Part shown: positions 1,000 through 22,726 of the stretch, piece after piece
Layout: every line of letters starts with the position of its first letter
Position numbering within the stretch: the first letter of the stretch is position 1
NCBI GenBank assembly: GCA_036268755.1
Contig: DATATO010000059.1
Coordinates: 1 to 38,157 of the forward strand
Source: Mycobacteriales bacterium
Lineage (GTDB): Bacteria > Actinomycetota > Actinomycetes > Mycobacteriales > QHCE01
Reading direction: 5' to 3'
DNA length: 38,157 nucleotides
Program-made: the position numbers and the translations under genes
The notes under the pieces: model-generated
Told to the model about the DNA's origin: nothing
Seen by the model: only the letters and a program-made list of their open reading frames with translations
Database searches by the model: none

Positions 1000-2493
1000 G
1001 TGGAGAGACCTAGTAAACCTGGCACCATCGCCATTATCGGGTCCGGCTTCGGTGGCCTATGTATGGCGATCGAACTGAAACGCGCGGGCATTGACTCATT
1101 CACTATCTTTGAAAAAGCCGACGAGGTGGGCGGCATTTGGCGGGACAACACCTATCCCGGTTGTGGTTGCGATGTGCCATCCCACCTGTATTCCTTCTCT
1201 TTCGAGAAATATCGAAGCCCTACCATGCGCTATCCCGGGCAGGAGGAGATTCTCGACTACCTCCTCGGAGTCACCGAGAAATATGACCTCCGTCCCCACT
1301 TAAAGACCGGCGCCGAAATCGTATCCGCCGACTACGATCACACCACGGCGCGGTGGGTCATTGTCACCAGCCAAGGCGAGGAACATTTGGCCGATGTTCT
1401 AATATCCGCAGTCGGTCAGCTACACCGGCCAAAGCTGCCCGATATTGCCGGTCGGGAAGATTTCGAGGGCCGAGCTTTCCACACGGCACGGTGGGATCAT
1501 GGTCATGATCTGACCGGCTGCGACGTAGCGGTGATCGGTACCGGCTGCAGCGCCGTCCAACTTCTGCCCCACGTGGCCCGACAGGCTCGTCAAGTCCAAG
1601 TTTACCAACGGACTCCCAACTGGATTGTCCCCAAGCCTTCAGCCAAATTCGGCTCTGTGACCAGCTGGGCCTTCGGTCGTTTTTCCGTTCTGCAGTCGGT
1701 CTACCGTTCCCTGATGTACTTTCTGGCGGACTTCGCATTGACGCCTGTGATCACCCGGGGGTGGTCCTTCCTGCCGGCCACATGGGTCGCGCGGTGGCAC
1801 CTGCGTACTCAGGTGCCCGAACGCGGCTTACGTTCGCGGCTGACGCCAAGCTATCCGATCGGCTGCAAACGAATTGTCATCGACAACGACTACTATCCGA
1901 CGTTGTCCCGGGACAACGTCCAGCTTGTGACAGAAGGTATTACTCGGATCACACCCACAGGTATCGAGACCGACGACGGCGTGCACAGAAAAGTGGACGT
2001 CATCATTTACGCGACGGGGTTCCGGACGACCGAGTTTCTCGTTCCGATAAGAGTGTTGGGCAAGCAGGGGATGGACCTGCACAAGGAATGGCGGAAAGGC
2101 GCAGAGGCATATCTGGGAATGGCGGTCCCTTCATTTCCTAACTTCTTCCTCGTTCATGGACCTAACACCATTCTCGGCCACAATTCGAATATCTTCATGA
2201 TCGAATGTCAGATTCGGTACATCATGAATTGTCTGCGGATGCTTCCTGGTGAGATTGAAGTTCGCCCTGAAACCATGCGTGACTACCGCACGTGGCTGGA
2301 CAAAGCGATATCTAAAACCACATGGCCGACAGGTTGCCAGAGCTGGTATAAGACCGAAGACGGCCGTGTGACGAACCCGTGGCCCGCATCGACCATGCGG
2401 TACCGACGGTTCACGCGCCGCGATCCCTCGGATGCATTCACCGTGACCATTGGCGAGGCCAAAACTGAGGAGTCCGGAACTCCAGCTAGCTGA
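1000..2493 (+). CDS. FAD-dependent Baeyer-Villiger-type flavin monooxygenase
   Basis: Contains N-terminal dinucleotide fold IAIIGSGFGG, the BVMO fingerprint FEGRAFHTARWD (FxGxxxHxxxW[P/D]) and a second Rossmann motif VIGTGCSAVQ. GTG start at 1000 is preceded by AGGAGA at 989-994. Confidence 0.85.
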   Translation: MERPSKPGTIAIIGSGFGGLCMAIELKRAGIDSFTIFEKADEVGGIWRDNTYPGCGCDVPSHLYSFSFEKYRSPTMRYPGQEEILDYLLGVTEKYDLRPHLKTGAEIVSADYDHTTARWVIVTSQGEEHLADVLISAVGQLHRPKLPDIAGREDFEGRAFHTARWDHGHDLTGCDVAVIGTGCSAVQLLPHVARQARQVQVYQRTPNWIVPKPSAKFGSVTSWAFGRFSVLQSVYRSLMYFLADFALTPVITRGWSFLPATWVARWHLRTQVPERGLRSRLTPSYPIGCKRIVIDNDYYPTLSRDNVQLVTEGITRITPTGIETDDGVHRKVDVIIYATGFRTTEFLVPIRVLGKQGMDLHKEWRKGAEAYLGMAVPSFPNFFLVHGPNTILGHNSNIFMIECQIRYIMNCLRMLPGEIEVRPETMRDYRTWLDKAISKTTWPTGCQSWYKTEDGRVTNPWPASTMRYRRFTRRDPSDAFTVTIGEAKTEESGTPAS

Positions 2494-2787
2494 ACCTAGC
2501 TAAACTTCGTGTACAGATCCGTGCGCAGAGCATAAAGACGCCCTCTCATAATGATCCGCCCTAGTACGTCCAAGCCACCGCCACCACTGCGGACAGGATT
2601 ATTACCCATTTGGCTGACCGATGGTCCTACTCTTCTGTCTCTTCTGTAGAAGTAATAACCGAAGCAGAGACTCTCGATCTCCTCTGCGTCTGCGCAAGAA
2701 ACTCACGGCTTAGATGTCGGCCCTCACATATTGCCTGGCATCTAGAACATCACCGCGGGAAGGGATCCGGCGGAATTGGAGGAGCTC

Positions 2788-3648
2788 ATGGAGATCGATT
2801 TCGTGCCCGATCGGGCGTTGTACCCGTTCGAGTCTCGCTGGCTGGACACCTCGGCTGGCCGGATGCATTACGTTGACGAGGGAGCTGGGCCGCCAATCCT
2901 GCTGTGTCACGGCAATCCCACATGGAGCTTTCTGTATCGGCATCTCATCAGGGCTTTGGCAGGCCGGTTCCGGTGCGTGGCCGTCGATTATCTGGGCTTC
3001 GGGCTGTCTGAGCGACCCGCCGGTTATGGCTATACCGCCGCCGACCATGTGCGTACGGTGGGTGAGCTGGTCGACCATCTGGGCTTGGAGCGTCTGGTGG
3101 TCATGGGTCAGGATTGGGGTGGCCCGATCGGGATGGGCGTCGCGGTCGAGCGCGCCGAGCGCATCGCGGGTGTGGTGCTGGGCAACACCTGGTGCTGGCC
3201 CTCGGATGCGGTGCGCCTGAAGATATTCAGCCGGATCATGGGCAGCGCTCTGTTTCAGCACCTGATTCTGCGGCGGAACTTCTTTGTCGAGCGGCTGGTG
3301 CCCGCCGGCATCACCCGCCGGCTCAGCCCGGCCGAGATGGACCATTACCGCATGGTGCAGCCCACCCCCGAGGCGCGCATCGGCGTGGCCGTACTACCGA
3401 AGCAGATCTTGGCCGCCCGCCCGCTGTTGGAGCGGCTGGGTCGCGAGGTGCCGGCTCGGCTCGGGACCACGCCGGCATTGCTGGTGTGGGGTATGCGGGA
3501 CCCAGGGTTCCGGGCCGGTGCCCTGCTGCCACGGCTGCGGTCGATCTTTCGCGACCACGTGCTGCTGGAGCTGCCGGACGCCAAGCACTACATCCAGGAA
3601 GACGCGCCGGCCCCGATCGCCGAGGCCATCATCGCCCGATTCGGCTGA
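2788..3648 (+). CDS. alpha/beta-fold hydrolase, haloalkane-dehalogenase/epoxide-hydrolase-like
   Basis: Contains HGNPTWSFLYRH, and a nucleophile-elbow-like GQDWGG with Asp at the nucleophile position. ATG at 2788 is preceded by GGAGGAG (2778-2784), which I prefer over the TTG at 2776 used by the ORF track. Confidence 0.85.
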   Translation: MEIDFVPDRALYPFESRWLDTSAGRMHYVDEGAGPPILLCHGNPTWSFLYRHLIRALAGRFRCVAVDYLGFGLSERPAGYGYTAADHVRTVGELVDHLGLERLVVMGQDWGGPIGMGVAVERAERIAGVVLGNTWCWPSDAVRLKIFSRIMGSALFQHLILRRNFFVERLVPAGITRRLSPAEMDHYRMVQPTPEARIGVAVLPKQILAARPLLERLGREVPARLGTTPALLVWGMRDPGFRAGALLPRLRSIFRDHVLLELPDAKHYIQEDAPAPIAEAIIARFG

Positions 3649-3681
3649 CCCGACCGGCATAGCGGCATGTGATCGGTGACT

Positions 3682-3879
3682 GCCTCCATCAAGATAGGCA
3701 CAGAGGTCAGAAATGAGCGACCTGACCCGGTCGAACGAGGGAGGCACGAACTCCGCGCCGATGGGGCTCCAACTGTTCCCACCGATCCAGCTTTGGACTT
3801 CGCGAAGCCCATGATGGCTCTCGTCGGGCAGCAGGGCACGGTGAAGCGCGTCCATACCGTATCTACTCAGCCAGCCCAC
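3682..3879 (-). pseudogene. Internal fragment of a Fic/DOC-family protein (gene remnant)
   Basis: Translation ...LHRALLPDESHHGLREVQSWIGGNSWSPIGAEFVPPSFDRVRSLISDLCAYLDG matches the region that precedes the HPFxxGNGR core in Fic proteins. No Fic core follows. The upstream part is missing because the tRNA starts 23 nt away. Downstream, the ORF only persists as a read-through across the end of the hydrolase gene. Confidence 0.5.
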
Positions 3880-3901
3880 AGCTCGAATAAGCCTGGTTCG
3901 G

Positions 3902-3974: not shown

Positions 3975-4258
3975 CGTCCTGCGCCTAGCCGCGCATGGCC
4001 ACTATAGAGCAGCGAAACGGGTCCAAAGCGGACCACCTGGCGAGTAACTTCTCCACGAGCAGCTGTCAAGTGTGCAGCCGGGAAGCCCCCTCGACCCAAC
4101 CCTTACATCCTCTAGCTCTCCACAATGAGGTTTCACCGTAGGCCAAAATTCTGGGCACCCAGCCAATTGGCATGCATCGGTCGATTAGTGCCGAGATCTG
4201 CCCGATTGGGCGGGGCGGGGTAGAAGCAACACGGCTGTCGCCGTTACTGTCGTGGACC

Positions 4259-5599
4259 ATGTCTGTTCCATCACCCCGGTTCATCCGGACCTCATGCGTT
4301 TTAACGATTGCCGCCTTCACTCTTGGTCTGCCGGCCGTCGCGTCCGCCGAAGGCCCCAGTGACAATCTCGCCCCGATCACTGGCCTGGCCAAGGTGGTAA
4401 CCGGCACTGTCGACACCCAGAGCCTGACCGATGGCAATACCCCCACCCTGATGCGCGGCGCCTCCGACACGGACTCCACGGTGTCCATGCTGGACAGCGG
4501 CGTCCTGAAAAACTTCAATGCCCAGCAGCTGTTGCTCAACAACGGCGAATCTAGGCAGCTCCAGGCCTACCGCCTTAGCCCGCAGGAAAAGGCGGGTGAG
4601 CCGCAGGTTGGCAAGGGCTCCGGCGTCAAGCTGGGCGAGACGCCATTGTCCAGCGTTGGCCTTGACGACCAGAAGATGTCCAAGGTGACCTGGCTGCTCG
4701 CGCAGACCAAGGCCGCCGGCGACGACAAGTCGAGTCTCGACAAGCTGGCCGACTCGGTCTCCAGCGTCACCGGCCTCGACCTAGGCACCGTCACCCCGAA
4801 GCAGCGCTCCGCGGCTACCCAGGCCGCCGTGTGGCACTTCACCAAGGGCATGGAGCTCGACCCGCAGCACAACGACAGCGTGGTCACCTCCCTGTACAAC
4901 TACCTGGTCGGCCCCGCCAACGTTGGCGCTCCGCTTCCGACCCGCCGCGCCGCCCCGCTGAGCACCGTTCCGCTGGCCGGTAGCTTGCCAACCGCCGATG
5001 AGCTGCCGCCGGCTCTCGCGCCGGACGCCGGCAGTGTCTCCGGTCCGTTCAAGGTCAGCCCGGACTCCCCGGGAGTCGGACTCGAGGCCAGCGGTAACAA
5101 GGATCCCCAGGTCGTGAACTCCAAGGGTGCCGTCATCGACAAGGCCGCGCCCGGTGAAGAGTTCTTCCTGAAGATGCCCAAGGACGCGTCGGCTCAACCC
5201 GTGGTCGTCAGCGCCATCTCGCAGCAGAAGGACGTGACCGGCCGTGTCGTCACCGACCTCGGCCACGACACCCACAAGCAGCCGACTCAGTTGGTGCTGC
5301 AGGACGGTCCCGCGCTTCCGGTGCAGCAGCCGGTGACGCTCAACTGGGTGCCCGACGAGAAGGCCGCGCAGGCCGGATCGTCCAACTCCGCCGCTGGCAG
5401 CTATAACGAGGCTAAGCCCTCTGAGGTAGCACATAAGACCAAGCACGCCGCAACCGATCACGCCGGCGGCCTTCCGGTCACCGGCGCCGCGGTCGGCGGC
5501 ATTGTTGCGCTCGGTGTAGTACTGCTCGGCGGCGGTGGTCTCTTGTTCCTGTCCTCTCGTCGCAAGAAAGCGGCGGCGGTGGCAACCCCAGCCGAGTAA
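4259..5599 (+). CDS. LPXTG-anchored surface protein with a TQXA (thioester-domain-type) motif
   Basis: The ATG at 4259 gives a signal peptide MSVPSPRFIRTSCVLTIAAFTLGLPAVASA/EG. TQAAVWHF is present (Gln codon at 4820-4822). The C-terminus has LPVTG, then a hydrophobic stretch, then RRKK, which is a sortase sorting signal. The ORF-track start at 4172 adds 29 residues before the signal peptide and is less likely. Confidence 0.75.
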   Translation: MSVPSPRFIRTSCVLTIAAFTLGLPAVASAEGPSDNLAPITGLAKVVTGTVDTQSLTDGNTPTLMRGASDTDSTVSMLDSGVLKNFNAQQLLLNNGESRQLQAYRLSPQEKAGEPQVGKGSGVKLGETPLSSVGLDDQKMSKVTWLLAQTKAAGDDKSSLDKLADSVSSVTGLDLGTVTPKQRSAATQAAVWHFTKGMELDPQHNDSVVTSLYNYLVGPANVGAPLPTRRAAPLSTVPLAGSLPTADELPPALAPDAGSVSGPFKVSPDSPGVGLEASGNKDPQVVNSKGAVIDKAAPGEEFFLKMPKDASAQPVVVSAISQQKDVTGRVVTDLGHDTHKQPTQLVLQDGPALPVQQPVTLNWVPDEKAAQAGSSNSAAGSYNEAKPSEVAHKTKHAATDHAGGLPVTGAAVGGIVALGVVLLGGGGLLFLSSRRKKAAAVATPAE

Positions 5600-5639: not shown

Positions 5640-6773
5640 ATGTCGCTGTTTCGTGTTTCCCCGCAAGGTTTGATTCCGTTCCGGCCGATCGACGGTGGTT
5701 CCGTCGATCCGGCCGAGGTCACCAACGCGCTCATTCAGGCGTTGTGGTCGGACCTTGACGCCATCGGTGGCGGTCGTCTTATGGCCATTCACCGGGGAGG
5801 CGCTGACGGCTCCAATGAAGTTCCCATGATCCTGGCGCTAGACGGCGACGGTTCGGCCGTCGTCGTCTACGCCAGTGCTCAGTTGGATTCCGCCGGACTC
5901 GCTCATTGCCTCGAGCAGGTGGGCCTAGCGCGCAGGTCCACGGTTAGCGAACTGGCCAGCGGGTATTGGCGCGGTAGCGACGAATTTTGGCGAGACTGGC
6001 AGGACTTCAGCGGTACCTCCTCGCCTGTCTCCTCGGGGTCGCATAACCGCCCCCTCCGCCTGGTGATTGTTACCACTGCCATACCCGATTCCACCGAGGC
6101 CGCGCTCAGTTTCCTGACCGAGGCGGGTACACCCGTCTCGGTCCGCAAGGCCAGCATGTACGTCGATGCCGAGGGATGCCAGCTGCTCGAACTAGCTCAC
6201 GAGCCGGCCAGTCCCCACGAGGTTCGGCAGGGTGCGAGCGAGCAGCGGAAAGTGGCTACCCCTCACACGGTCGAAAACGCCCAGCCGGCGCCCGCTCCAC
6301 GCAATACGCCGAATCCCGGTCAGCGGACGACCCGCCTCACATCCCACATGCCCGACCGCGAGGCCGAGGTCGGTCAGCGCGGCGCGGCCGGCCGGAACAT
6401 GGACGTTGGTGCCATGAACCACGCAGTGGCCGACGAGTTGTTCTCGGGCTCCAGCGGATCCCGGCAGAGCCGGTTTACCCGCCCCACCTCTCGCGTGGCG
6501 GCGAATCCGCCGGCGGCCTCCGTGTCACAGCTGCGCCGCAAGCAGCCGACACCGGTCGAGATCGAGCCCCCGGGCGCCGAGGACGACTACGACCAGGGGG
6601 ACGAGGATCAGACCCCGCGCTTCGGTCGTAACGACGACGCACTGTCGGAGGAGTACGGCTCGCCACAGCTGGCGCCGCTGCGATTTCCCAGCGAGCTGGT
6701 CGAGCCTCCGTTCCCGGAGGAACTGATGAACCCCGGTGTAGTCAGCGCCAACGGTCGAGGTCACAGCGCCTAG
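5640..6773 (+). CDS. Hypothetical protein: ~190-aa folded N-terminal region plus a long low-complexity Pro/Arg/Glu-rich tail
   Basis: Long ORF with an ATG at 5640 and a weak GGAAAG upstream. I recognise no motif. Its stop TAG (6771-6773) overlaps the stop of the convergent GT20 gene. Confidence 0.55.
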   Translation: MSLFRVSPQGLIPFRPIDGGSVDPAEVTNALIQALWSDLDAIGGGRLMAIHRGGADGSNEVPMILALDGDGSAVVVYASAQLDSAGLAHCLEQVGLARRSTVSELASGYWRGSDEFWRDWQDFSGTSSPVSSGSHNRPLRLVIVTTAIPDSTEAALSFLTEAGTPVSVRKASMYVDAEGCQLLELAHEPASPHEVRQGASEQRKVATPHTVENAQPAPAPRNTPNPGQRTTRLTSHMPDREAEVGQRGAAGRNMDVGAMNHAVADELFSGSSGSRQSRFTRPTSRVAANPPAASVSQLRRKQPTPVEIEPPGAEDDYDQGDEDQTPRFGRNDDALSEEYGSPQLAPLRFPSELVEPPFPEELMNPGVVSANGRGHSA

Positions 6774-8800
6774 GGCCTGTGTTGCCTACGGACGCTCTGC
6801 CGCCTCCGGGCACTTAGTCCCGGGGCGGGGCCGCGGCCGGCCATGTTGGTCGCAGGTGCGCCGGGGATCGGTCGGCTCGGTGTCCTCCGACGTTGCCGAA
6901 TACCGCCGACCCGCGCAGGAGCTTTCTCCGTCCTGGCTTGGTTGAGGTCCTGTATGATCCGGCTGTTCCAGGTACCGACTTGATGCGTCCGCACCTGTCG
7001 TCGCAGCCCGCGCATGCGCTCGCGCTGCTCCGGCTCGGACATGTGCAGCGCCCGTTCCATGCCGTCGGCTAGCTCACGAGTGTTTCGTGGATCGACGATG
7101 ACAGCTCCGCTAGGGCCGAGCTCAACCGCGGCTCCGGCACCCCCTCCCAACAGGAGTGTCCCGCGCTCGTCGCTGCGGGAGGCGATAAATTCCTTCGCCA
7201 TCAGATTCATGCCGTCCTTGAGCGGAGTGATCGTCATGACGTCGGCGGCGCGATATACGGCGGGAACCTCTTCCGGAGACACGCTGTCCCAATGGTCGTG
7301 GATGGGCTCCCAGCTTCTGCCGGTCTTCGGATCGATGATCCGGTATTTGGCGTTCAGCTCGGCGATGCGATTCGATAACAGCTCGGCGTACTGTTGCGCC
7401 GCCTCCACCCCTTCGCGGGCCTTCGCGAACGACAGATACATGACCTCCTGTCGTGGGTCGAAACGACCCTCGGCGAGCAGCAACTCGAGCGCGTCGATCC
7501 GCTCGGAGATGCCCTTGGTGTAGTCCAGCCGCTCGATGCCGGCGATAATCTTTCGGTGCCCGACGGTCTCCTTGATCTCCTCGGTCTTCCGGGCGATCTC
7601 GTCGCTGCGTCCCAGCGAGTCGTATTTGTCATAGTCGATGGAGATTGGATAGTTGCGGACCGCCACCTGGCGGTTTTCAACCTGTATCTGGTCACCTACC
7701 ACTCGAACTAGCTCGCCGTTCACCGTAAACGGGGAGCCTGCCTCTGCCGAGCGTTGTACGACTTTCCGCACGGTGTCGACGAAGTTCTTCACGTCCCTCG
7801 GCGTCTGGAATCCCAGCACATCGTTGGCCAGGAGGCCGGCGAGAAGTTCTTCGTGATGCGGGATTGTCGAGTAATCGGTGTAGTTGGGGAACGGCGTATG
7901 GGCGAAGTACCCCAGGGTGAGGTCGGGGCGTTGGTCGCGCAACATCCCCGACACGAGCTGCAACTGGTAGTCATGCACCCAGGCTATGGAGTCCGGTTCA
8001 GCCTGTCGGGCGAGCTCGTCGGCGAAGCGCTGGTTGACCCGTTGGTACTGCTCAAACCATTCCCCGGCCGCGTTCTCCCAGAATCGCACGTCATCGGCGC
8101 CCGGCACGAACTCCCGAAGCCCGTGGTAGGTAGGCCATAGGATCCCGTTACTGAAGCCCGCATAGTGTCCCTCGGTCTCCCGCTCGCTCACCGTGAGCGG
8201 GTGATAGTCGGTGCCGTCTCCGTGCAATGGGTCCGAGTGGCCGCTGAGTTCTCCCACCCAGTGATGCGGTGGCGGTGTCATGTTGGCGAGCCCAGTGGCG
8301 ACCCCGCCCATGCTCGGAGTGAGTTCTCCGGTGTTGTTGTCGATCTTCAACGGTAGGCGATAAGAAGCGATGGATACGGCGGGAGTCTGCTCGGCGCTGG
8401 GCTCGGTGAGCCAGTCGAGCAGCCCGACCACCTCGTCGACGCTGTTCACGAAGACAAGGTTGCCGCGGTCCAATAGGTGCTCGGCGTCGAGCGCCGCGAG
8501 GGTCTCCGGGCCGTCTCCGACGACGACGCCGACGTCTGTCTCCCGCAATCCTTTGAACCCGGCCATGCCGTAGCTGCCGTCGCTGACGTAGAGAGTCGGC
8601 CGGTCGGGTGGAATCTCGGATGCCTCGGTGGTCCTGCCATTGACTACCTCATAGCTGCCCAGTACCGGCGCGCCGTCGGCGCGATATTCGGCGACTACGC
8701 TGACGCCGTCATCGGCCACATGTCGCCGGAGGTGCTTGATCAGTTCTTGCTCACGCGCCACGGCGTTGACTCCTGTAACCGAATGATGGTCCGGCTCCAT
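6770..8800 (-). CDS. Divergent GT20-family sugar-phosphate synthase (OtsA-like) with an N-terminal ~145-aa extension and a basic C-terminal tail
   Basis: The GT20 core is recognisable from SIASYRLPL...GGVATGL...FSNGILWPTYHG...WVHDYQLQL...GYFAHTPFP...ERLDYTKGI...ITPLKDGMNLMAKEF. About 145 residues precede the core, and ~60 Arg/Pro-rich residues follow the point where the neighbouring OtsA ends. Confidence 0.8.
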   Translation of the reverse strand: MEPDHHSVTGVNAVAREQELIKHLRRHVADDGVSVVAEYRADGAPVLGSYEVVNGRTTEASEIPPDRPTLYVSDGSYGMAGFKGLRETDVGVVVGDGPETLAALDAEHLLDRGNLVFVNSVDEVVGLLDWLTEPSAEQTPAVSIASYRLPLKIDNNTGELTPSMGGVATGLANMTPPPHHWVGELSGHSDPLHGDGTDYHPLTVSERETEGHYAGFSNGILWPTYHGLREFVPGADDVRFWENAAGEWFEQYQRVNQRFADELARQAEPDSIAWVHDYQLQLVSGMLRDQRPDLTLGYFAHTPFPNYTDYSTIPHHEELLAGLLANDVLGFQTPRDVKNFVDTVRKVVQRSAEAGSPFTVNGELVRVVGDQIQVENRQVAVRNYPISIDYDKYDSLGRSDEIARKTEEIKETVGHRKIIAGIERLDYTKGISERIDALELLLAEGRFDPRQEVMYLSFAKAREGVEAAQQYAELLSNRIAELNAKYRIIDPKTGRSWEPIHDHWDSVSPEEVPAVYRAADVMTITPLKDGMNLMAKEFIASRSDERGTLLLGGGAGAAVELGPSGAVIVDPRNTRELADGMERALHMSEPEQRERMRGLRRQVRTHQVGTWNSRIIQDLNQARTEKAPARVGGIRQRRRTPSRPIPGAPATNMAGRGPAPGLSARRRQSVRRQHRP

Positions 8801-8870
8801 GGTTACGCGGCCGCGTCGATGCTGTTGTCGAATCGAGGTAACTACTGCATCTAGATCGATACAGTTGGGA

Positions 8871-10256
8871 CTAATGCACTAATTCATCCAGATAGGTCGC
8901 GGCCCAATGTGTGACGTCATGCGCGGAAACCTGCTCGCGCATGGCTGCCATGCGTTCCCTTAGCTCCGTCGGATCCGTATTAACCCCGGCCATGATCTGC
9001 CGCTTGAGCCCGTCCACGTCATGCGGATTCACCATGAAGGCCCGGTCCAACTCGGCGGCGGCACCGGCGAACTCGCTGAGCACCAGTGAACCGCCGGAAT
9101 CGGCCCGGGAGGCGACATACTCCTTCGCGACCAAGTTCATTCCATCCCGCAGCGGCGTGACCAGCATGACCTCGGCCACGTTGTATAGCGCGCACAGCTC
9201 GTTTCGGCTGTATGACTGCCGCAGGTAGTGCACCGCCGGGGTGCCGACGCGGCCGAATTCGCCATTGATCTGGCCCACCTGCCGTTCCACGTCGTGCCGC
9301 AGCGCACGATAGTGCTCCACCCGCTCCCTGCTGGGGGTCGCGACCTGCACCAGCACCGTTTCCGGAACGGTGAGCGCACCGTCGAAGAGCAGCTCCCGGT
9401 AGGCCTTGAGGCGTTTGTCGATACCTTTCGTGTAGTCGAGCCGGTCCACGCCGAGCAGGACGGTCCGCGGGTCGCCCAGGCGGCGGCGCAGCGCCCGCGC
9501 CCGCTCCCTGACCTTCTTCGAGCCGCCCAACTTGTTAAGGCCGTCGAAGTCAATCGAGATGGGGAAGGCCCCCGCGCGAACCACCCGGCCGTCGACGGCG
9601 ATGCTGGAGTCGGTGCGTTCCAGGCCGCAAATCCACTCGGCGAGGTGCAAAAAGTTCTCGGCGCCGTCCGGGGTCTGGAAGCCGACGAGGTCCGCCCCGA
9701 GTAGCCCCTCGATGAGCTGGCGACGCCACGGCAGCTGCATGAACAGCTCCAGCGGTGGGAACGGGATGTGCAGGAAGAACCCAATGCGCAGGTCGGGTCG
9801 GGCCTCGCGCAGCAGCGCCGGCAATAGCTGCAGCTGATAGTCCTGAATCCAGATCGTGGCGTTGGGGGCGGCGGCCTTGGCGGTGACGTCCGCGAAGCGC
9901 CGATTCACCTCGACGTACCGGTCCCACCAATGCCGGTGATAGCTGGGGGAGACCACGGCGTCGTGATACAGCGGCCACAGCGTGCCGTTAGAGAATCCCT
10001 CGTAATAGTCGCGGACGTCGTCCGCCGACAACTCCACGGGATGCAGCGACACCCCGTCGAGGTCGAAGGGCTCCGGAGCGGTCCCGACGATGCCCGACCA
10101 GCCGACCCAGACACCACCCCGGTTGCTCATAACGGGGTCGAGGGCGGTGACCAAACCACCCGGACTGCGGCGCCAGGCGTCGACCCCTGTTCCGTCACCG
10201 ACACGGTCGACCGGGAGTCGGTTGGCCACTACGACAAAGTCGCCGCTCTCGCTCAT
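8871..10256 (-). CDS. otsA: alpha,alpha-trehalose-phosphate synthase (GT20)
   Basis: 461 aa with canonical motifs throughout: [60 protein letters not shown] and [18 protein letters not shown] at 10256 is preceded by GGAGA. Confidence 0.9.
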
Positions 10257-10430
10257 TACTGTCTCCGCCCGCCGCGCGGCCGTCCACAGACGCTAGGTGC
10301 CGCTCGCGCTTTTCTCTAGCCTAGTCAGCCTCGGCCTCAACTGAGGTTTCCCGCGCGTTACGACTTGACTGCGGTCAGGGCCGGGGTTCGCAGAGACACT
10401 CGTCGCAGCGGCCAGGGCCGATAGCCTCAA

Positions 10431-11459
10431 TTAGCTGCCGCAGCGCTCGGCCGCTTCGGTAAGCAGCTCGGCCAGCTCGAATGGGTCGCGCAGTTCCAGC
10501 AGCTCGACATCGTCGTCGAGGCGACGTTCCCGGATGGCGCTTCGGAGCCGATCGCCCACTGTGACCATGATATCGCCCCCGCGCAGTTCGGCCATGGCGG
10601 CTAGGTCGGTGATGTCGTCACCCACGCAGGCTATGGATAGATGGGGGAAAGCCTCGTGCAGATAGGTGACGGGTCGGCCCTTGTCGGCCGGCCGCACCTG
10701 AATGTCGAGCACGTTGCTGCCGAGGATCGCGTGGAGCTCGTGTCCCCAGCCCCGCGAGCGCTCGAGGCGGAACTGCTCCGTCGTGGCCAGGACCTGCGCC
10801 GCCGTATCGGGATGAGTCGCCGCCAACATCCGAGTGTGCACGGCCACACCCTCGGGTTTGATCTCCAGGTAGATCTGACCCTGCCGGGTCGGGTCGATCT
10901 CGTGAAGGACCGGGATGGCCGGAAACATCAGCTGTAGAAATCCGGGTAGCTCCTCGACGAGCCGGTCCCTGCTTTCCCTGTCGTCAGGTGACATCGGCGT
11001 GAACAGCCCGGCGACGCGGGCTGCGTCTTCCTGACCGGCGATCAGGCCAGGGTCCAGATCTGCCCCGTGGTTGCCGATCGCGTAGATGATGCCGCGGCGC
11101 CCGTCGTCGAGGCGGTAGCCCAACCCCTCGGTATCGAAAGTTGCGATCGGCGACTCCACGTGCGCAACGTTCGACCCACTCTCCGGGTCGTAGTCGTGCA
11201 CGTTCTCCGTTTTCAGGAACTCCTCGATGCCACGCTTGCCCTCCGGCGTGAGCCGCCGAGGCCGCCCGCTGATAACCACCACCAGATGTGCCGGGCTGGC
11301 GCCCAACAGCTGGAGCGCCGGCAGCACGCCGGGCGCGCGCCACGCCTCCTCCGCCTCGTCGTGCAGCGGGCTGAGGCAGCCGTCGTAGTCGGTGGCGACG
11401 ATCGCGCCAGCCGCGATTCGCTCCACCGCAAGGTTCCAGTTATGTGGTCGATAGGCCAT
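10431..11459 (-). CDS. OtsB-family HAD phosphatase (trehalose-phosphatase-like), copy 1
   Basis: HAD motif I is ATDYDGCLSP (DxDG, with C where OtsB has T). Also present are ISGRP, GNHG, LEIKPEGVAVHTR, VRPADKG and motif IV GDDITD. ATG at 11459 is preceded by GGAG. Confidence 0.8.
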   Translation of the reverse strand: MAYRPHNWNLAVERIAAGAIVATDYDGCLSPLHDEAEEAWRAPGVLPALQLLGASPAHLVVVISGRPRRLTPEGKRGIEEFLKTENVHDYDPESGSNVAHVESPIATFDTEGLGYRLDDGRRGIIYAIGNHGADLDPGLIAGQEDAARVAGLFTPMSPDDRESRDRLVEELPGFLQLMFPAIPVLHEIDPTRQGQIYLEIKPEGVAVHTRMLAATHPDTAAQVLATTEQFRLERSRGWGHELHAILGSNVLDIQVRPADKGRPVTYLHEAFPHLSIACVGDDITDLAAMAELRGGDIMVTVGDRLRSAIRERRLDDDVELLELRDPFELAELLTEAAERCGS

Positions 11460-12589
11460 GCCAGCTCCGTGAGTCTTGAGGACAGGCTCAGAAGATAGCG
11501 GACATGTCCGACATTGAGCCGAAGCCGATCTATGGCGGATCGCCGTGGACCCCGTTTGGTGGCTCGTGCGGCGCTCTTGGTTGCCACCGAATTCAGGAGG
11601 GTGGCGACCTCCGCGGGGCTTGCCAGTCTCAACAGATCCACCCCGTCCGGCAACCCGCGCTCGCGCAGGGCCTCGGTAAGCCGGTCACCGACGACTACGG
11701 CAATGTCACCCGGGCGCAGCTCGGCCATGGCGTCGAGGTCGGTGATGTCATCGCCGATGTACACGATGGGCTCACCGGGAAACTTCTCGTGTAGGTAGGC
11801 GATGGGGCACCCCTTGCTGGCCGGGCGCACCATGATGTCCAGCACGTTGCTGCCGGCCGTGGCGTGTAGCGGGTGATCCCGCTGCTCCGATGTGCGGGCG
11901 AGGTAGAACTCCCTTGCCACTCGCAAGGCGTCCTCGGCATCCGCCGGGCTGGCCGCGCCGAGGGCGCGGGTGTGCACCGCAACCCCCTCGGGTTTGACCT
12001 CAAGGTAGATCTGCTTGCCGGGTTGCCCGGATTCAAAGGTGATCGGGATGTCCGGTAACGCTTGCCGCAGCGCCGTCGGCAGATCGGCGATGAGACCTTT
12101 GCGGATTGCGGCATCCTCTTCACTCATCGGCGCGAAGAGTTCGGCGGCCCGGGCTTGATCTTCCTCGATCGTAACGAGCGCCGGATCCATGTCGGTCCCG
12201 TGGTTGGCGATGACGTGGATCCTGCCGGGGCTGCCGTTGAGCTCGTAGCCGAGGTCTTTGCCGGGGAAGCGTGCGACCGGGAGTTCCGTGTCTCGAACGT
12301 TCGCCCCGGTTCGAGGGTCACGTTCGTACACGTTCTCAGTTCTGAGGAAGTCCTCGATGCCGCGTTTGCCGTCCGGCGTGAGCCGACGGGGACGTCCGCT
12401 GATCGCCACCACCAGGTGGTCACGGCTCGCCCCCAGTCGCTGCAGCGGCTCCAGGATGCGCCTGGCCCGCCACGCCTCTTCGGCGTTGTCGTGCAACGGG
12501 CTGAGGCAGCCGTCGTAGTCGGTGGCGACGATCGCGCCGGCGGTGACGCGCTCCGCGAGATCGTCCATGGTGTACAGGCCGTTGGCCAT
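11213..12589 (-). CDS. OtsB-family HAD phosphatase, copy 2, with a ~116-codon read-through extension overlapping copy 1
   Basis: This copy has the same motif set as copy 1: ATDYDGCLSP, ISGRP, ANHG, LEVKPEGVAVHTR, VRPASKG and GDDITD. Similarity to copy 1 ends at ...LLNSVATKSAA (codon at 11567-11569). The frame then stays open across the start of copy 1 until TGA at 11213-11215. Confidence 0.75.
   Translation of the reverse strand: MANGLYTMDDLAERVTAGAIVATDYDGCLSPLHDNAEEAWRARRILEPLQRLGASRDHLVVAISGRPRRLTPDGKRGIEDFLRTENVYERDPRTGANVRDTELPVARFPGKDLGYELNGSPGRIHVIANHGTDMDPALVTIEEDQARAAELFAPMSEEDAAIRKGLIADLPTALRQALPDIPITFESGQPGKQIYLEVKPEGVAVHTRALGAASPADAEDALRVAREFYLARTSEQRDHPLHATAGSNVLDIMVRPASKGCPIAYLHEKFPGEPIVYIGDDITDLDAMAELRPGDIAVVVGDRLTEALRERGLPDGVDLLRLASPAEVATLLNSVATKSAARATKRGPRRSAIDRLRLNVGHVRYLLSLSSRLTELAWPIDHITGTLRWSESRLARSSPPTTTAASARCTTRRRRRGARPACCRRSSCWAPARHIWWWLSAGGLGGSRRRASVASRSS
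11367..11408. repeat. 42-nt tract identical to 12497-12538 (direct repeat within the two phosphatase paralogs)
   Basis: cgggctgaggcagccgtcgtagtcggtggcgacgatcgcgcc is read at both loci. It encodes the motif-I region (A)IVATDYDGCLSP. Flanking DNA is clearly diverged. Confidence 0.9.
12497..12538. repeat. Second copy of the 42-nt identical tract
   Basis: The string is identical to 11367-11408, 1130 nt away in the same orientation. Confidence 0.9.
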
Positions 12590-12739: not shown

Positions 12740-14410
<1,671 letters not shown>

Positions 14411-15208: not shown

Positions 15209-15684
15209 GAGGGCTCATCGCCGGCCGGCTCCGGCATGTGGTTGACCATGAAGTGCGCCGCCCGCTCTAGGTATTCCCACAGTGTGGCGTCGAGCTCGGG
15301 CGCCAAACCCACATCATCGAGCGAGGAGCGCATGTGCCGCAGCCAGACGTCACGTTCGGCGGGGCCGATGACGAACGGCGCGTGCCGCATCCGCAGCCTC
15401 GGATGGCCGCGTAGCTCGGAATACGTCTTCGGGCCGCCCCAGTACTGCTCCAGGAACAGCAGCAGCCGGTCGGCCGCCTCATCCAGGTCGTCGGGATACA
15501 TCGGCCGCAGCACGGGATCGGTTGCCACCCGGCGGTAAAAGCCCGTCACCAGGGCGTAAAAGGCGTCGTGCCCGCCCATGGCGTCGTACAGCGTCGTCTC
15601 TTCGGCGGTCGTTGGAGCGGCCGAGGCCGGTCGCGACGACAGGCCAAGCATGCGGCCGGGCGAGGGGGTTTGTTCCGATGTCAT
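15196..15684 (-). CDS. glbO: Group II truncated hemoglobin (trHbO)
   Basis: Reads [33 protein letters not shown]...[31 protein letters not shown]...RDVWLRHM. The ATG at 15684 overlaps the upstream mscS-family stop as ATGA. The longer ORF-track start at 15897 lies inside that gene. Confidence 0.85.
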
Positions 15685-16658
15685 GCCTTGTCGCCTTGTC
15701 CATTCGTAGGGATGGCGGGTAGTCCCGATTCGATTCCCGCCTCGGCGAATGCCGCCGTCACCCTGGCCCGCAGCTCTCGAGCGACCCGCCATTGTGCCTG
15801 GCTGGTCGTCTTCACGGTGATGCGCAGCGTCATGCCGTTGGCTGTCAGCTGCTCGACCCCCAGCACCTCGGGCTGCCCGAGCAAATCGGCCTTCCACGTG
15901 TCATCCTCGGCGAGTTTCCCGCCTACCTGCCGCATGGTGTCCGTCGCCGAGGCCACGTCGGTGCCGAACGGCACCGGAATGTCCACGTTCACCATGGCCC
16001 AGCCCTGGCTCTTGTTGCCGACCCGGAGCACCTCACCGTTGCGGACATACCAGACGACACCGCTACCGTCCCGGAGTGTGGTGACCCGAAGCCCCATTGC
16101 CTCCACAGTTCCTGACGCATCACCCATATCGATGACGTCGCCCACTCCGTACTGGTCTTCCAGCATCATGAACATGCCCGCTAGGACGTCCTTTACCAGC
16201 GCCTGGGCGCCGAAGCCCAGGGCGACGCCGGCAATACCGGCACTGGCGAGCAACGGCCCCAGCGGCTGTCCCAGCTGAGCGAGAATCATCATGGCCGCCA
16301 CCACGACGATCGCTATCGAGCTGACGTTTCGCAGCACCGAGCTGATCGTCTGGGCGCGCTGCCTGCGGCGTTCCGATGCTAGTGCTATGGCGGCAATCGT
16401 CGCCGGTGTTCGCTCGCGCAGCGGGCGCAGCACCGTGGGGACCTTGCCCTCGGTAGTGGACTTGGTGATGCGTCGGATCGCGCGATGCAGCAACCAACGC
16501 ACCACCAAAGCACAGAACACAATTCCCAGGATTGTCACCGGCTTGGTGATCATCCAGCTGGAGTTCTCGGCTAGCCAGCTACTGCTGGTCAGATGCCAGA
16601 CGTTGTGGCACAGCGTGCCCGCTTCAGAGGCGCACTTGGGCTTTGCGGCTAATAACAC
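15681..16658 (-). CDS. Small-conductance mechanosensitive channel (MscS family)
   Basis: Transmembrane helices are followed by the MscS pore/beta-domain signature [36 protein letters not shown]...[15 protein letters not shown]. The exact start is uncertain. Confidence 0.85.
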
Positions 16659-18863: not shown

Positions 18864-19700
18864 ATGACGAATCAGAATTCCCGGCCCAAGATCATCCCCC
18901 GGTTCAGCTTTACGCAGATCGTCGCCAGTGCTTTGGCGGCGGGCTCTGCCGCGCTCGCCGCGCGATACCTCGGCCTGGTCGGCACCGTAGTGGGAGCCGC
19001 GATCATCGGGGCCATCGCGACCACCGCGACCACCGTCTATGAACATTCGCTTCGACGCACCAACGCAGCCCTGCACAGGGCTGCGAGCCGCTCCGCGCGA
19101 CGGGTGGAGGGTCTGGCCGCGACCATTCCGGTGTTGTCCCCGACGTCGAAGGCCCTCGTGCGGCTGACCGACCGTGGCGCTCCGGAAAAGCCGGAGACCA
19201 CGCTGCATTCCGGTGTTGAATGGGCCGCCGGGGAGCACATCAAACGTCCCGGCCGTTCCGCATCGAGCGTCGTCTCCGCCGAGACGAGCATGTTCAGCCG
19301 TGTCGTTACCCCGGCGCCGAGAAAGCCGATGCCGACGGTGACGCGATGGAAGCTCGCGGCCGGTCTCACGACGGCCGTCCTGGTCACGTCCATGACCACG
19401 GTCGCGGGTCTTCAGTTGGCCGGCGGGAGCTCGCTATCCGACCTTATGCACGGCTCGAGTAACGATTCCGGGTCGTCCAAGGGCCGCGTGACCGTGGAGC
19501 AGCCCATCATCGTGCAGAACACGTCGAATCGGCCGACGGTGCGGGTGACCGTCGGGCCGAGCCCTAGCCCCACCCAGCCAAGTTCCACCCAACCCACCAC
19601 ACCGACACCCTCCCAGCCCACGCCGTCCACCCCGGCGCCGTCAGCACCGCCCAGCGGTCCCAACGAGAGCTCGGCGCCGATCATTCCGCAGCTGAGGTAG
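18864..19700 (+). CDS. Hypothetical membrane protein with a Pro/Thr/Ser-rich C-terminal tail
   Basis: ATG at 18864. There are two hydrophobic segments. The tail reads PSPSPTQPSSTQPTTPTPSQPTPSTPAPSAPPSGP. The 3' end overlaps the convergent cobT-like gene by 20 nt. Confidence 0.55.
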   Translation: MTNQNSRPKIIPRFSFTQIVASALAAGSAALAARYLGLVGTVVGAAIIGAIATTATTVYEHSLRRTNAALHRAASRSARRVEGLAATIPVLSPTSKALVRLTDRGAPEKPETTLHSGVEWAAGEHIKRPGRSASSVVSAETSMFSRVVTPAPRKPMPTVTRWKLAAGLTTAVLVTSMTTVAGLQLAGGSSLSDLMHGSSNDSGSSKGRVTVEQPIIVQNTSNRPTVRVTVGPSPSPTQPSSTQPTTPTPSQPTPSTPAPSAPPSGPNESSAPIIPQLR

Positions 19701-20562
19701 CGTCGGGGCTGCCTGCCGCGGCCAGCGCGGTCTGCAACAGCGGAAGCAGGATGAGTGCCCCCATGCCGTGCCCGCACCGCAGTCCAAGGTCGGCCACCGG
19801 CTCAAGGCCGAGGGCGTCGAGCGCGAACCGCTCGGCGGCATCCCCGTGGCGCTGTGGCGCGAAGTAGCTCTGCGGCGCGAACAGGTTGAAACGCGACGCC
19901 ACCAAAGCGGCGGCTGCGGTGATCGCCCCGTCCAGCAGCACCGGTGTGGTGCGCTCCGCCAACTGGCGCAGCAGGCCCACCAGGATCGTGAACTGTGGGT
20001 CTCCCAGTTCGGCGAGCAGCTGCTCCGCGCCGAGGGTGCGTGCCCGCCAGCTGAGATCGCGAACCTGCCGGCAGCGCTGCATCCACCGTCCGTCGTCGAG
20101 GTAGGCGGTGTCGTGTTCTCCAGCCGCCGCAAGTCTGCGCTCGAATCCGAGTGCCCACCCGGGCTCCGTCGGGACCAGTACACATACCGCCGCCGCGGCG
20201 GCGGTATGTGTACTGGCGGCGGAATGCGCGAGGACCGGTATCACCAGGTCCGCGCCGCCGTCCACCGCCGCATCCGCGAGGCTTGCGCCGGCCTTCAGCA
20301 GCTCGATCACATCGGTTGGCGGGTCGTCGGTGGGAGCCGATAGGGTTTGGATGCCCGCCGGTCGCAGCCTGTCCCACGCGGTCAGGGCGGTCGGATCCCC
20401 AAAGGTGACGGCCGTGACCGCGGTGAAAGGGGTCACCGATGCGGCTGCCGCGCCGTCGCCGGGATTGCGTGCCAGCCGTGCCCATGTCACCCACGACATG
20501 AGCGAGCCGAGGCTTTCGGTCGACAGCGAGACCGGGCGTTGGGGGATATCGTGATGAGTCAC
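19681..20562 (-). CDS. CobT-like protein (nicotinate-nucleotide:DMB phosphoribosyltransferase family) with degenerate active-site motifs
   Basis: The overall pattern fits the CobT family (...DLVIPVLAHSAASTHTAAAAAV... and C-terminal LGLRCGHGMGALILLPLLQTA). However, GIGNTT is replaced by SAASTH, and the LGEG(T/S)GA catalytic Glu position reads CGHGMGA. Confidence 0.65.
   Translation of the reverse strand: MTHHDIPQRPVSLSTESLGSLMSWVTWARLARNPGDGAAAASVTPFTAVTAVTFGDPTALTAWDRLRPAGIQTLSAPTDDPPTDVIELLKAGASLADAAVDGGADLVIPVLAHSAASTHTAAAAAVCVLVPTEPGWALGFERRLAAAGEHDTAYLDDGRWMQRCRQVRDLSWRARTLGAEQLLAELGDPQFTILVGLLRQLAERTTPVLLDGAITAAAALVASRFNLFAPQSYFAPQRHGDAAERFALDALGLEPVADLGLRCGHGMGALILLPLLQTALAAAGSPDATSAAE
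20175..20216. repeat. Perfect 42-bp palindrome (21-bp arms, no spacer) inside the cobT-like CDS
   Basis: ccagtacacataccgccgccgcggcggcggtatgtgtactgg equals its own reverse complement, checked base by base. Flanking bases a(20174) and c(20217) break the symmetry. Confidence 0.95.
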
Positions 20563-20870: not shown

Positions 20871-21812
20871 TCACAGTGACCGAGACCAGTCCTGTCCGAC
20901 CAGGTCGTGCCCCCAACTGTGGTGTGGACTCTCCCGATCGAGGTGGAAACCCGCTGCCTCGTAGATTCTGCGGGCGGACGCCAGGACGCTGTTCGTCCAC
21001 AAGGTGATGCGCCGGTAACCCGCGCGCTCGGCGAACCGCAGGCACTCATCGACCAGCTTGGTGCCGAGGCCCAATCCGCGCGCGGACGGCTCCACGAGGA
21101 GTAGCCGCAGCCGTGCCGTTGTATCATCTTCGGCCACACAGAATACGCAGCCCACCGGTTCGCCGTCGACCTCGGCGATCCAACCCGCCTCGCGTTGTGG
21201 GTCATGGTTGTCGACGTAGTCCGCCATGATCCGGGCCACCAGGGCTTCGAAGCTGATGCCCCAGCGGTATGCCGCAGCGTACAACGCGCCATGCCGCGCG
21301 ACAACCCAGCCGATATCTCCCGATGCCGGTGGCCGCAGTATGAATGCGCGCGGTGCCTGCGTTGGCTCCAGCGCGGCATTAATTGCCCCCATGGCCTTGA
21401 CCAGTTGGTTCCGCCGATCGAGGTCCAGCGGCACGATAAGCCGTTCTATTGCCGCCGCCTGAGCGGTGTCGACTTCGGCGAAGGCCGCGGCGCCGGCTTC
21501 GGTCAGGCGGACGATGTGCCGTCTCGCGTCCCCGGGTGACGTAGTTCGGGCTATCAGCCCGTTATCGATGAATCGTCGCAGGATGCGGCTGGAGTAACCG
21601 GCGTCGAGGTTCAGGAGCCGGCGCAGCTCCGTCACTTCGATCTCTGTGCGGCGGGCAATTTCGAAAAGTAGCCGGGCCTCAGTCAGCGTGTACGGAGTGC
21701 CCACGAAACTGGCACCCAATGCGCCGATCATTCGGGTGTAGAAGCGGTTGAATTCGCGTATCCGGGCAATGACCTCAAGGGACTGCGCGTCACCGGGGGT
21801 ATTAGTTGGCAT
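20871..21812 (-). CDS. MarR-type HTH regulator fused to a GNAT N-acetyltransferase
   Basis: The N-terminal half is MarR-like (FNRFYTRMIGAL...TLTEARLLFEIA...VTELRRLLNLDAGYSSRILRRFIDNGLI). The C-terminal half is GNAT-like (LLLVEPSARGLGLGTKLVDECLRFAERAGYRRITLWT). The internal ATG at 21812 is preferred over the ORF-track start at 21992. Confidence 0.85.
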   Translation of the reverse strand: MPTNTPGDAQSLEVIARIREFNRFYTRMIGALGASFVGTPYTLTEARLLFEIARRTEIEVTELRRLLNLDAGYSSRILRRFIDNGLIARTTSPGDARRHIVRLTEAGAAAFAEVDTAQAAAIERLIVPLDLDRRNQLVKAMGAINAALEPTQAPRAFILRPPASGDIGWVVARHGALYAAAYRWGISFEALVARIMADYVDNHDPQREAGWIAEVDGEPVGCVFCVAEDDTTARLRLLLVEPSARGLGLGTKLVDECLRFAERAGYRRITLWTNSVLASARRIYEAAGFHLDRESPHHSWGHDLVGQDWSRSL

Positions 21813-21982
21813 AGGCAAGATTATCGCTGACCGAGTCAACCGTTGGTTATAGGGTTCGGCTGGCCCCACCGAGGCGTTCGGTGAGGAATTAAACCTTATG
21901 GACAGCCTTTTCGTAAAATTCTGTGACGTATCATTCCAGGTCGCTACGTTCGGTTGCGTTACCCCCGCAGCTGGAGAAATAC

Positions 21983-22726
21983 ATGTATTCAATTCGATCG
22001 TTGCGCATCGGCGCGCGCAAACTTTTACTGGTGAGCACTCTCGTGCTGGCAGTTTTGCCGTTTCAGCTGGTTGCCACTAACCCAGCTCAGGCCTCGGCCG
22101 ACGCGATTTCCGGCGGAACGCTGCGAGTCATGCCGCTCGGAGACTCCATCACCGAGGGCAACGGCGAACAGGTGCCGGGCGCCTATCGTCCCGCGCTCTG
22201 GGATATCGCTGCGGAGTCGGGCAATTCGATTAACTTCGTGGGAAGTCAGCGCAGCGGGCCGGCGGACTTGCCGGACAAAGACCACGAGGGCTTTCCGGGG
22301 TTACAGATCCAAGAGATTGATGCCCGCGTTATGCCCGACATAAAGAAGTACCGGCCGGATGTCATCCTGCTCCACGCCGGGACAAATAACATTTGGCGCG
22401 ATGGTGAGCTTCCCACCCTGGCGCCGCAGCGGCTGTCCGCGCTGGTCGATCACATCGTTACGGCCGCTCCCCACGCTCGGGTCTACGTGGCGAGCATCGT
22501 GCCGTCGGTCGAACACGACGCGAACGTCCGCGCGTTCAACAAAACAATCCCGGGGATGGTCGCCGATAAGGCCTCCCACGGCGCCAAGGTTTTCTACGTC
22601 GATCAATATTCTCCATTGACCTTCGCCGACCTCATCGACGGCATCCACCCCAACAAACACGGCTACCGGATCATGGCCAAGCAATGGTGGGCCGCCATGC
22701 AGCAGCACGAAGAGCAGCTGCAGTAA
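21983..22726 (+). CDS. Secreted SGNH/GDSL-family hydrolase
   Basis: The ATG at 21983 follows GGAGA. The signal peptide is ...LVATNPAQASA. Block I is MPLGDSITEG, block III is LHAGTNN and block V is DGIHPN. Confidence 0.85.
   Translation: MYSIRSLRIGARKLLLVSTLVLAVLPFQLVATNPAQASADAISGGTLRVMPLGDSITEGNGEQVPGAYRPALWDIAAESGNSINFVGSQRSGPADLPDKDHEGFPGLQIQEIDARVMPDIKKYRPDVILLHAGTNNIWRDGELPTLAPQRLSALVDHIVTAAPHARVYVASIVPSVEHDANVRAFNKTIPGMVADKASHGAKVFYVDQYSPLTFADLIDGIHPNKHGYRIMAKQWWAAMQQHEEQLQ

Follow-up and report, generated by a model that had tools for sequence, protein, structure and literature searches.

A doubled synthase and phosphatase array in an uncultured actinobacterial lineage as a candidate diverged trehalose-6-phosphate isoenzyme module

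Why does one bacterial gene block carry two synthases of glycosyltransferase family 20 (GT20) together with two OtsB-type phosphatases? The question is raised by positions 6770–12589 of contig DATATO010000059.1 (Mycobacteriales bacterium, assembly GCA_036268755.1), which was analysed from position 1 to 38,157; this whole stretch is referred to as the window. The first-pass annotation described four minus-strand genes joined by an overlap, 174 nt and 70 nt, and took the doubling as a sign of a second, uncharacterised sugar-phosphate or compatible-solute pathway. The list of open reading frames (ORFs) bears out this order and these junctions: PP2 (also PPb-2; 11213–12589, 458 aa) and PP1 (PPb-1; 10431–11459, 342 aa) overlap by 247 nt, PP1 is separated by 174 nt from the canonical synthase OtsA (8871–10256, 461 aa), and OtsA by 70 nt from a divergent GT20 synthase, here called GT20' (6770–8800, 676 aa). 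The reading favoured here, with a probability of roughly 0.55, is that the block encodes diverged isoenzymes of trehalose-6-phosphate (T6P) synthase and phosphatase as one module, whose preference for the nucleoside diphosphate (NDP)-glucose donor may differ. The idea of a second pathway thus survives in part. The second synthase and the phosphatases are true, old paralogs rather than recent copies, and GT20' with a phosphatase is a recurrent unit, while the OtsA contacts are kept, the scores are OtsA-like, and one phosphatase type, named PPa, is common to both synthases.

According to this reading, the block would be a composite form of an otsA/otsB locus that evolves fast and recombines in an uncultured actinobacterial lineage. 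Canonical OtsA would make T6P, its original partner PPa would survive merely as a dead stub fronting GT20', and the two PPb proteins, which belong to the sister clade of PPa and have intact HAD motifs, would now dephosphorylate T6P. GT20' would be an old OtsA paralog that still moves glucose from NDP-glucose onto glucose-6-phosphate, i.e. a second T6P synthase isoenzyme, and its remodelled base pocket would probably reflect preference for another NDP-glucose (purine-type) or a different regulation.

Family scores and fold comparisons place GT20' closest to T6P synthases. On PF00982 it reaches 329.7 bits (cutoff 32.5), on the OtsA model TIGR02400 359.9 bits, which is far under the cutoff of 564.85, and on the GgpS model TIGR02398 250.1 bits (cutoff 569), which is below its OtsA score. 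Among sequences in PDB the best match is Mycobacterium thermoresistibile OtsA (E = 1.4e-80), with VldE at 1.3e-14. The AlphaFold2 model of GT20' has a mean confidence (pLDDT) of 82 overall and above 90 in the GT20 catalytic domain (aa 143–630; 6911–8374, minus strand). Its TM-scores are 0.85–0.90 against OtsA structures and 0.89–0.90 against 5jio/5k44, with a root-mean-square deviation of about 3 Å. The top Foldseek match is again M. thermoresistibile OtsA, and the top 50 are all T6P synthases with no VldE among them. Three other identities were considered for GT20' and rejected: GgpS (250 versus 360 bits for OtsA, together with the fold matches), VldE/ValL (E of 1e-14 versus 1e-80 for OtsA, and absence from the top 50 folds), and the bifunctional T6P synthase–phosphatase (TPS–TPP) model NF011071, on which GT20' has 404.5 bits (cutoff 634), a reversed domain order and a degenerate phosphatase part.

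Residue-level evidence comes from an alignment of 55 sequences, in which E. coli OtsA and 48 other canonical OtsAs (49 together) stand beside the GT20' members. All intact GT20' members keep E. coli R9, G21/G22, Y76, W85, D130, Q/H132 and H154, as well as R262, K267, R300, D361, N364, L365 and E369, of which W85 and G21 are contacts in E. coli OtsA structures. The catalytic and donor columns G22, H154, R262, K267, D361 and E369 are invariant across the whole alignment. Apart from W85 and G21, the listed E. coli positions (12) were matched to the M. thermoresistibile residues that contact the acceptor glucose-6-phosphate (R18, Y90, D144, Q146 and R324) or the donor (R286, K291, D385, E393, H168 and G39, with backbone contacts from N388 and L389) (PMC6879718). 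The five glucose-6-phosphate contacts are kept in the window GT20', P0002, P0003, P0004 and the L012 protein, and a Y-to-L change occurs solely in the frameshifted copy of L009. Even the most divergent intact member, that of L012 (36% identity), keeps all listed contacts.

The part of the active site that does differ is the pocket for the nucleotide base. Clade-wide changes there include, in E. coli numbering, Q294 to L/V, I295 (M. thermoresistibile L319) to S, A296 to F/L and Y334 to D/G; V366 to M and F387 to G/E are also clade-wide. The position of M. thermoresistibile V363 holds Val or Thr in GT20' and Tyr in the canonical OtsA of the window. In characterised OtsAs the I295/L319 and V363 positions tune the preference among ADP-, GDP- and UDP-glucose (PMC6879718), and donor-base preference differs between lineages (PMC5247666). 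The remodelled pocket therefore suggests a different NDP-glucose preference for GT20'. As for the earlier proposal that the divergent synthase could use another acceptor or donor, the kept contacts to glucose-6-phosphate and to donor glucose speak against a different product.

The second synthase does not begin with its GT20 domain. Residues 1 to about 135 of the ORF (8396–8800, minus strand) are delimited by BLASTP and alignment as a PPa-type phosphatase remnant, in which GDDxTD has become SDGSYG and both DxD and SGR are gone. The stub matches the PPa of L094 (E = 2e-11) and the PPa domain of P0002 (E = 6e-07), i.e. it is PPa-like rather than PPb-like, and has a pLDDT of 50–80. It is evidently the remnant of a dead phosphatase domain, and since it is of the PPa type and lies behind otsA, the window would retain an ancestral otsA-to-PPa order. 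Translation of GT20' probably starts at GTG 8761, which has AGGAG 8 nt upstream, is the start of the 663-aa product predicted by the gene caller and gives the N-terminus MARE.. found in P0002; this start leaves a 109-nt gap to otsA. At the other end, GT20' has a disordered C-terminal tail of ~45 aa, and its ORF shares 4 nt with a convergent gene.

As for the phosphatases, which had been called atypical OtsB-type proteins, NCBIfam and Pfam place both of them in Trehalose_PPase/HAD-IIB. The two score 38.1 and 43.5 bits on PF02358 (cutoff 27) and 51.9 and 56.4 bits on TIGR00685 (cutoff 68.05), with the higher value belonging to PP2 in both cases. The TIGR00685 matches are split by an insertion, and the extra beta-rich segment at about residues 70–135 explains why the score falls under the cutoff. 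PP1, which carries this insertion, has intact HAD motifs, and so has PP2 (DYDGC, SGRP, K and GDDITD). All stand-alone members keep HAD motifs I–IV (DYDGC/T, SGR, K, GDDxTD) together with the cap motif E-x-K...H-x-R, and in the family alignment D24, D26, G65-R66, E199, K201, H208, R210, K260, D281, D282 and D285 are invariant or nearly so. The AlphaFold2 model of PP1 (pLDDT 86) retrieves T6P phosphatases from PDB as all of its top 11 Foldseek matches, including 5gvx, 5dxi, 6qj6, 6upb, 4ofz and 5dx9, with TM-scores of just 0.42–0.66, kept low by the insertion and the cap angle. The comparison with OtsB is thus upheld by both the HAD and cap motifs and the closest folds.

Relatives of these phosphatases are scarce. 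In a word-index search covering 5.8 billion clusters, PP1 had only about eight relatives (PPb clusters), and in GTDB, scanned with one genome per species for 185,579 species, the family turned up in two metagenome-assembled genomes, Mycobacteriales bacterium LS6_sbin.2 and an antarctic Acidimicrobiales bacterium, all other matches being ordinary OtsB with 22–27% identity. Seven proteins had E below 1e-30 in an exhaustive profile search across 1.84 billion representatives, after which scores fall from 132 to 86 bits, and a JGI metagenome scan added two more loci. PPa/PPb is thus a very rare, lineage-specific OtsB-like family with two sister clades. PPb comprises PP1 and PP2 of the window and the proteins of L001, L005/6, L009, L010, L012 and L101, and PPa those of L094, L096 and L102 and the N-terminal domain of P0002, which is 49% identical to the PPa of L094. 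The word atypical therefore fits the rarity of the family and its TIGR00685 scores below cutoff, while the family would be this lineage's own OtsB, PPa following otsA in three loci.

The position of PPa links the phosphatases to a substrate. In L094, L096 and L102 PPa directly follows canonical otsA, and this coupling in three loci identifies it as the probable OtsB of the lineage. Because the same type is fused to GT20' in P0002, one phosphatase type would serve both synthases. In the window, where PPb shares one array with otsA, PPa is dead, so T6P from the intact OtsA would have to be cleared by PPb; T6P build-up is toxic in mycobacteria (PMC6879718). In relatives with PPb followed by GT20', PPb is the sole partner of GT20' at the locus. 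This chain is the strongest chemical argument available and, combined with the kept contacts to glucose-6-phosphate and donor glucose, makes T6P the likeliest product of GT20' and the likeliest substrate of PPb, both assigned here from sequence comparison.

As for the canonical synthase, it has 474.3 bits on PF00982 (cutoff 32.5) and 534.7 bits on TIGR02400, slightly under the equivalog cutoff of 564.85. Every catalytic residue is present. The nearest proteins are P0133 (75% identity) and P0134 (69%), and many further matches, named actinobacterial OtsAs among them, lie at about 62–67%. The 461-aa protein is thus predicted to be an ordinary actinobacterial OtsA, and its identity to GT20' is 33%.

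Related contigs show where the cassette belongs and how it varies. It always occupies one slot, bounded on one side by ettA (12740–14410, plus strand; 940 bits on NF008775), which is the divergent flank, and on the other by the convergent gene of a conserved ~400-aa protein (377 aa in the window; 5640–6773, plus strand). The contents of the slot differ. Canonical otsA followed by PPa is found in L094, L096 and L102, and PPb followed by GT20' in L001-3 and L005-8, whereas P0002 and L004 have an intact PPa domain fused ahead of GT20' in one protein. In L012, PPb precedes a GT20' with a full-length, catalytically dead PPa-like domain. L009 and L099 have PPb and a GT20' (1839–3471 and 1231–2542, respectively) with one frameshift, identical in the two assemblies. 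L010 and L011 carry a cap-deleted PPb and a frameshifted N-terminal GT20' fragment of about 210 aa (3259–3901 and 2903–3545, respectively). In L101, PPb is followed by a small HicB-like (DUF7387) gene and an IS3-type transposase fragment (1256–2050), and GT20' is missing. Only in the window do two PPb genes, otsA and a GT20' with a fused PPa stub occur together. The presence of GT20' with PPb in a slot otherwise holding otsA with PPa looks like paralog displacement.

Comparison of close strains points to exchange of the whole cassette. Between L004 and L001 both flanks have 95–96.6% DNA identity, whereas the cassettes (PPa fused to GT20' versus PPb plus GT20') are alignable only patchily, at 67–71%; L004 compared with L001/L002 points to a hot spot of recombination that has ettA and the ~400-aa gene as its borders. 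Likewise, L009 and L010 are 99.4% identical over 2.8 kb of the right flank, whereas their cassettes are below 76% or unalignable. These structures are not one-off artefacts, since L010 and L011 come from different assemblies and still have 99.9% identity, and L001-3 are mutually consistent. For the window against its relatives dS is saturated and dN/dS not interpretable. At the unsaturated divergence of L001 and L006 (dS about 0.35), dN/dS equals 0.41 for GT20', 0.32 for PPb and 0.045 for ettA. Where two strains have ettA about 90% identical, their GT20' is only 36–64% identical. In strains sharing the 99.4% identical right flank GT20' is broken in two ways, by the identical frameshift and by loss of the C-terminal domain, and both broken alleles occur in metagenome Ga0136627, the source of L099 and L100, which have different cassettes. 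Mosaic cassettes, raised dN/dS and broken alleles together imply that close strains exchange the cassette, that the constraint on it is relaxed or diversifying, and that it is lost at times.

Several of these observations fit a different product as well. GT20' and one PPb might form a separate two-step route to another glucosyl compound, with an acceptor other than glucose-6-phosphate or with another NDP-sugar as donor, which seems rather unlikely. The synthase–phosphatase pair does recur as a unit, up to the fusion in P0002, and in the window it coexists with an intact canonical OtsA. In the word-index search GT20' has three close relatives (55–62% identity), after which scores fall from 583 to 310 bits; it is 33–41% identical to canonical OtsAs, and a neighbour-joining tree puts its clade on a long branch that falls outside the eight OtsAs of actinobacteria included. 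The gap between 360 bits and the OtsA equivalog cutoff of 565, the beta-rich insertion unique to PPb, and the hypervariability of the cassette with its raised dN/dS could be read in the same way. On the opposite side, GT20' retains the five glucose-6-phosphate contacts and every contact to donor glucose, every score puts GT20' nearer to OtsA than to GgpS or VldE, the PPa that is fused to GT20' is elsewhere coupled to canonical otsA, and the window OtsA has PPb as its sole phosphatase, which would thus have to handle T6P. Moreover, genes that would supply an unusual acceptor or NDP-sugar are absent from the cassette, and GT20' is broken in some strains.

The isoenzyme reading nevertheless has to accommodate a number of points that weigh against it. 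Of 156 columns conserved in at least 93% of the 49 canonical OtsAs, 96 differ in at least one GT20' member. Near the acceptor site GT20' has N8 changed to Y/H, P20 to M/V and G40 to H/A, with a 10-aa insertion after H89, and these changes beside the site leave room for an altered acceptor specificity. Cassettes that are unalignable inside 95–99% identical flanks are odd for housekeeping trehalose genes, and so are dN/dS values of 0.41 and 0.32 next to that of ettA. Simple redundancy does not explain why one array keeps both its synthases and both its phosphatases, and the four-gene layout is found on one contig only, a single metagenomic one. An extended form of the different-product explanation, in which the PP–GT20' cassette makes an undescribed glucosyl solute or glycoconjugate precursor and is a hypervariable, horizontally exchanged pair of a desert/Antarctic soil actinobacterial lineage, is unlikely; in that case the window would preserve the coexistence of the cassette with the classical OtsA route. 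A different product would mean a new GT20 activity and a new solute for desiccation-adapted actinobacteria.

The broken alleles raise the further question of whether GT20' is an enzyme at all. It could be decaying or non-catalytic, either as a pseudogene-bound relic or as a regulatory or scaffolding subunit, with OtsA and PPb alone making trehalose; catalytically inactive TPS-like proteins exist in yeast and plants. The frameshift shared by L009 and L099 in independent assemblies, the ~210-aa fragments of L010 and L011, the absence of GT20' beside an insertion-sequence fragment in L101, and the dead phosphatase domains on GT20' in the window and L012 all agree with decay, as do the dN/dS of GT20' and its low identity between strains with nearly uniform ettA. 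However, the catalytic residues survive in every full-length member, that of L012 included, and their retention despite heavy turnover elsewhere is a signature of retained catalysis. In addition, dN/dS is well below 1, the GT20 domain is modelled with high confidence, and in several relatives GT20' is the sole synthase at the locus. Decay or a regulatory role is therefore distinctly unlikely.

Returning to the T6P isoenzyme module, the block itself may be one transcription unit. No minus-strand terminator-like site was found in the gaps of the four-gene block, an Rfam search of the gaps for riboswitch or leader elements gave no match, and the 174-nt spacer between PP1 and OtsA has no unusually stable fold, which agrees with the first-pass statement that a strong hairpin is absent. 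Each of the four genes has GGAG a few bases ahead of its start. Together these signals make a single operon plausible.

The junction between the two phosphatases needs separate treatment. PP1 and PP2 share 58% protein identity and form a tandem duplicate with an in-register unit of about 1.13 kb and 70–76% DNA identity; a recent tandem duplication or a misassembly was rejected, DNA identity being only 70–76%, and the two are old duplicates. The homologous part of PP2 covers 11555–12589 (minus strand, about 345 aa), with homology stopping at about residue 341. There the frame has no stop, and about 115 further, non-homologous codons (11213–11555) enter PP1 in another frame, which accounts for the 247-nt overlap. 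An out-of-frame TGA at 11490–11488 would close PP2 29 nt before PP1, given one miscalled base; the missing stop may thus be a real loss or a single-base assembly error. Variable Arg/Pro-rich tails are normal among PPb relatives.

This run-on ORF could also be a junction scar if the four-gene layout were an assembly chimera of two co-occurring strains with different cassettes, such as those represented by L099 and L100 in Ga0136627. Word-index, GTDB genome, JGI metagenome and exhaustive profile searches all returned no further copy of the layout, which thus rests on its one contig. A chimera is nevertheless very improbable, as the duplicates are in register and only 70–76% identical, otsA followed by the PPa remnant keeps the ancestral order, every gene starts behind a GGAG of its own, and base composition is even over the block. 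The survey for co-occurrence of the four genes suggested in the first-pass annotation has two sides: GT20' with a phosphatase is a recurrent two-gene unit, fused in P0002, while all four genes stand together on one contig.

No characterised cluster matches this layout, and the T6P isoenzyme module can be compared only with its parts. The actinobacterial OtsA/OtsB systems (OtsA of M. thermoresistibile and Mycobacterium tuberculosis, OtsB2, and the GDP-glucose-dependent OtsA of Streptomyces venezuelae) share with it the GT20 GT-B fold, the same catalytic residues and the same contacts to donor glucose and glucose-6-phosphate, a phosphatase of the HAD-IIB type bearing the cap motifs of T6P phosphatases, adjacent synthase and phosphatase genes, and a donor-base pocket that varies by lineage. 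Unlike them, GT20' is only 33–41% identical to canonical OtsAs, with insertions specific to its clade and a remodelled pocket for the base, PPa/PPb is a tiny separate family under the TIGR00685 cutoff with a beta-rich insertion, and the order here is often phosphatase before synthase. Two T6P synthase paralogs in one actinobacterium, OtsA1 and OtsA2, are recorded for Rhodococcus opacus 1CP (Tischler 2013, as cited in PMC6888414), so that doubling needs no new product. GgpS and VldE/ValL belong to the same CAZy family and fold and take a phosphate-bearing acceptor, yet GT20' scores lower against them, and no cyclitol or glucosylglycerol-pathway neighbours are present here. As for the Rhodococcus pair, it is not known to be part of one array with doubled phosphatases or to be fused to phosphatase remnants.

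Bifunctional TPS–TPP proteins (NF011071/PRK14501; eukaryotic Tps2, Tsl1 and class II TPS) likewise carry both domains on one polypeptide, and fusions with one catalytically dead domain are known among them. In P0002, L012 and the window, however, the phosphatase is N-terminal and GT20 C-terminal, and the window copy retains just a ~135-aa stub. A fusion with the phosphatase ahead of the synthase is unusual, as is the series of its decay stages, and neither the PPa/PPb family nor the GT20' clade has a description that goes beyond generic automatic names, although the chemistry is most likely the known one. If the isoenzyme reading is true, the locus offers a compact case of a stress-protectant pathway rebuilt by duplication, reversed-order fusion, domain death, paralog displacement and cassette swapping, as well as two natural T6P synthases in which the choice of NDP-glucose donor can be compared. 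Whether the product is T6P or a different one, PPa/PPb is an undescribed, extremely rare OtsB-like subfamily missed by current equivalog models.

The flanking genes, one side of which had been described as accessory-looking, turned out to be syntenic. The 377-aa gene and the gene of a surface protein with a thioester domain (TED) have counterparts in related contigs, and an accessory island was rejected on these grounds. The window ettA is 88–93% identical to full-length ettA of related loci and 84–93% to the partial ettA of L004, L009 and L012. Across the related loci full-length copies are 86–95% identical, and the short N-terminal fragments of L004, L009 and L012 at least 83%. Homologues of the ~400-aa protein stand at the same slot edge in L001, L004, L009-L012, L094 and L096, whatever the cassette; they have 36–52% identity to the window copy and 94–99% between close strains. 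The 377-aa protein has a conserved N-terminal part of about 190 aa (MSLFRVS..GLIPFR..), a low-complexity C-terminal half and no Pfam or NCBIfam match. The TED protein, often found beyond this gene in related contigs, is secreted, has an LPVTG sortase anchor and is encoded at 4172–5599 (plus strand) in the window; in L012, L095 and L096, too, the slot is flanked by TED proteins.

Beyond ettA lie genes for an MscS-type mechanosensitive channel (15681–16658, minus strand) and a CobT-like DBI_PRT protein (19681–20562, minus strand). Both flank ettA in L006 and L094 as well, and MscS also does so in L096; the same genes beyond ettA in L006 and L094 imply that the window is collinear core chromosome of the lineage. 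The location of an osmotic-release channel near the ots slot may be a coincidence.

Among minor observations, P0132 (662 aa, L097) was considered as a possible fusion and rejected; it is a canonical OtsA, encoded on a JGI contig of 2.7 kb, and its internal tandem duplication of about 200 residues (FYEGFSNATLWP...EIRE twice) may be real or an assembly artefact. Further along the window, a MarR-GNAT fusion protein is encoded at 20871–21992 (minus strand), followed by adjacent genes for a GT2 glycosyltransferase and a PMT_2-like membrane glycosyltransferase at 22809–25758 (minus strand).

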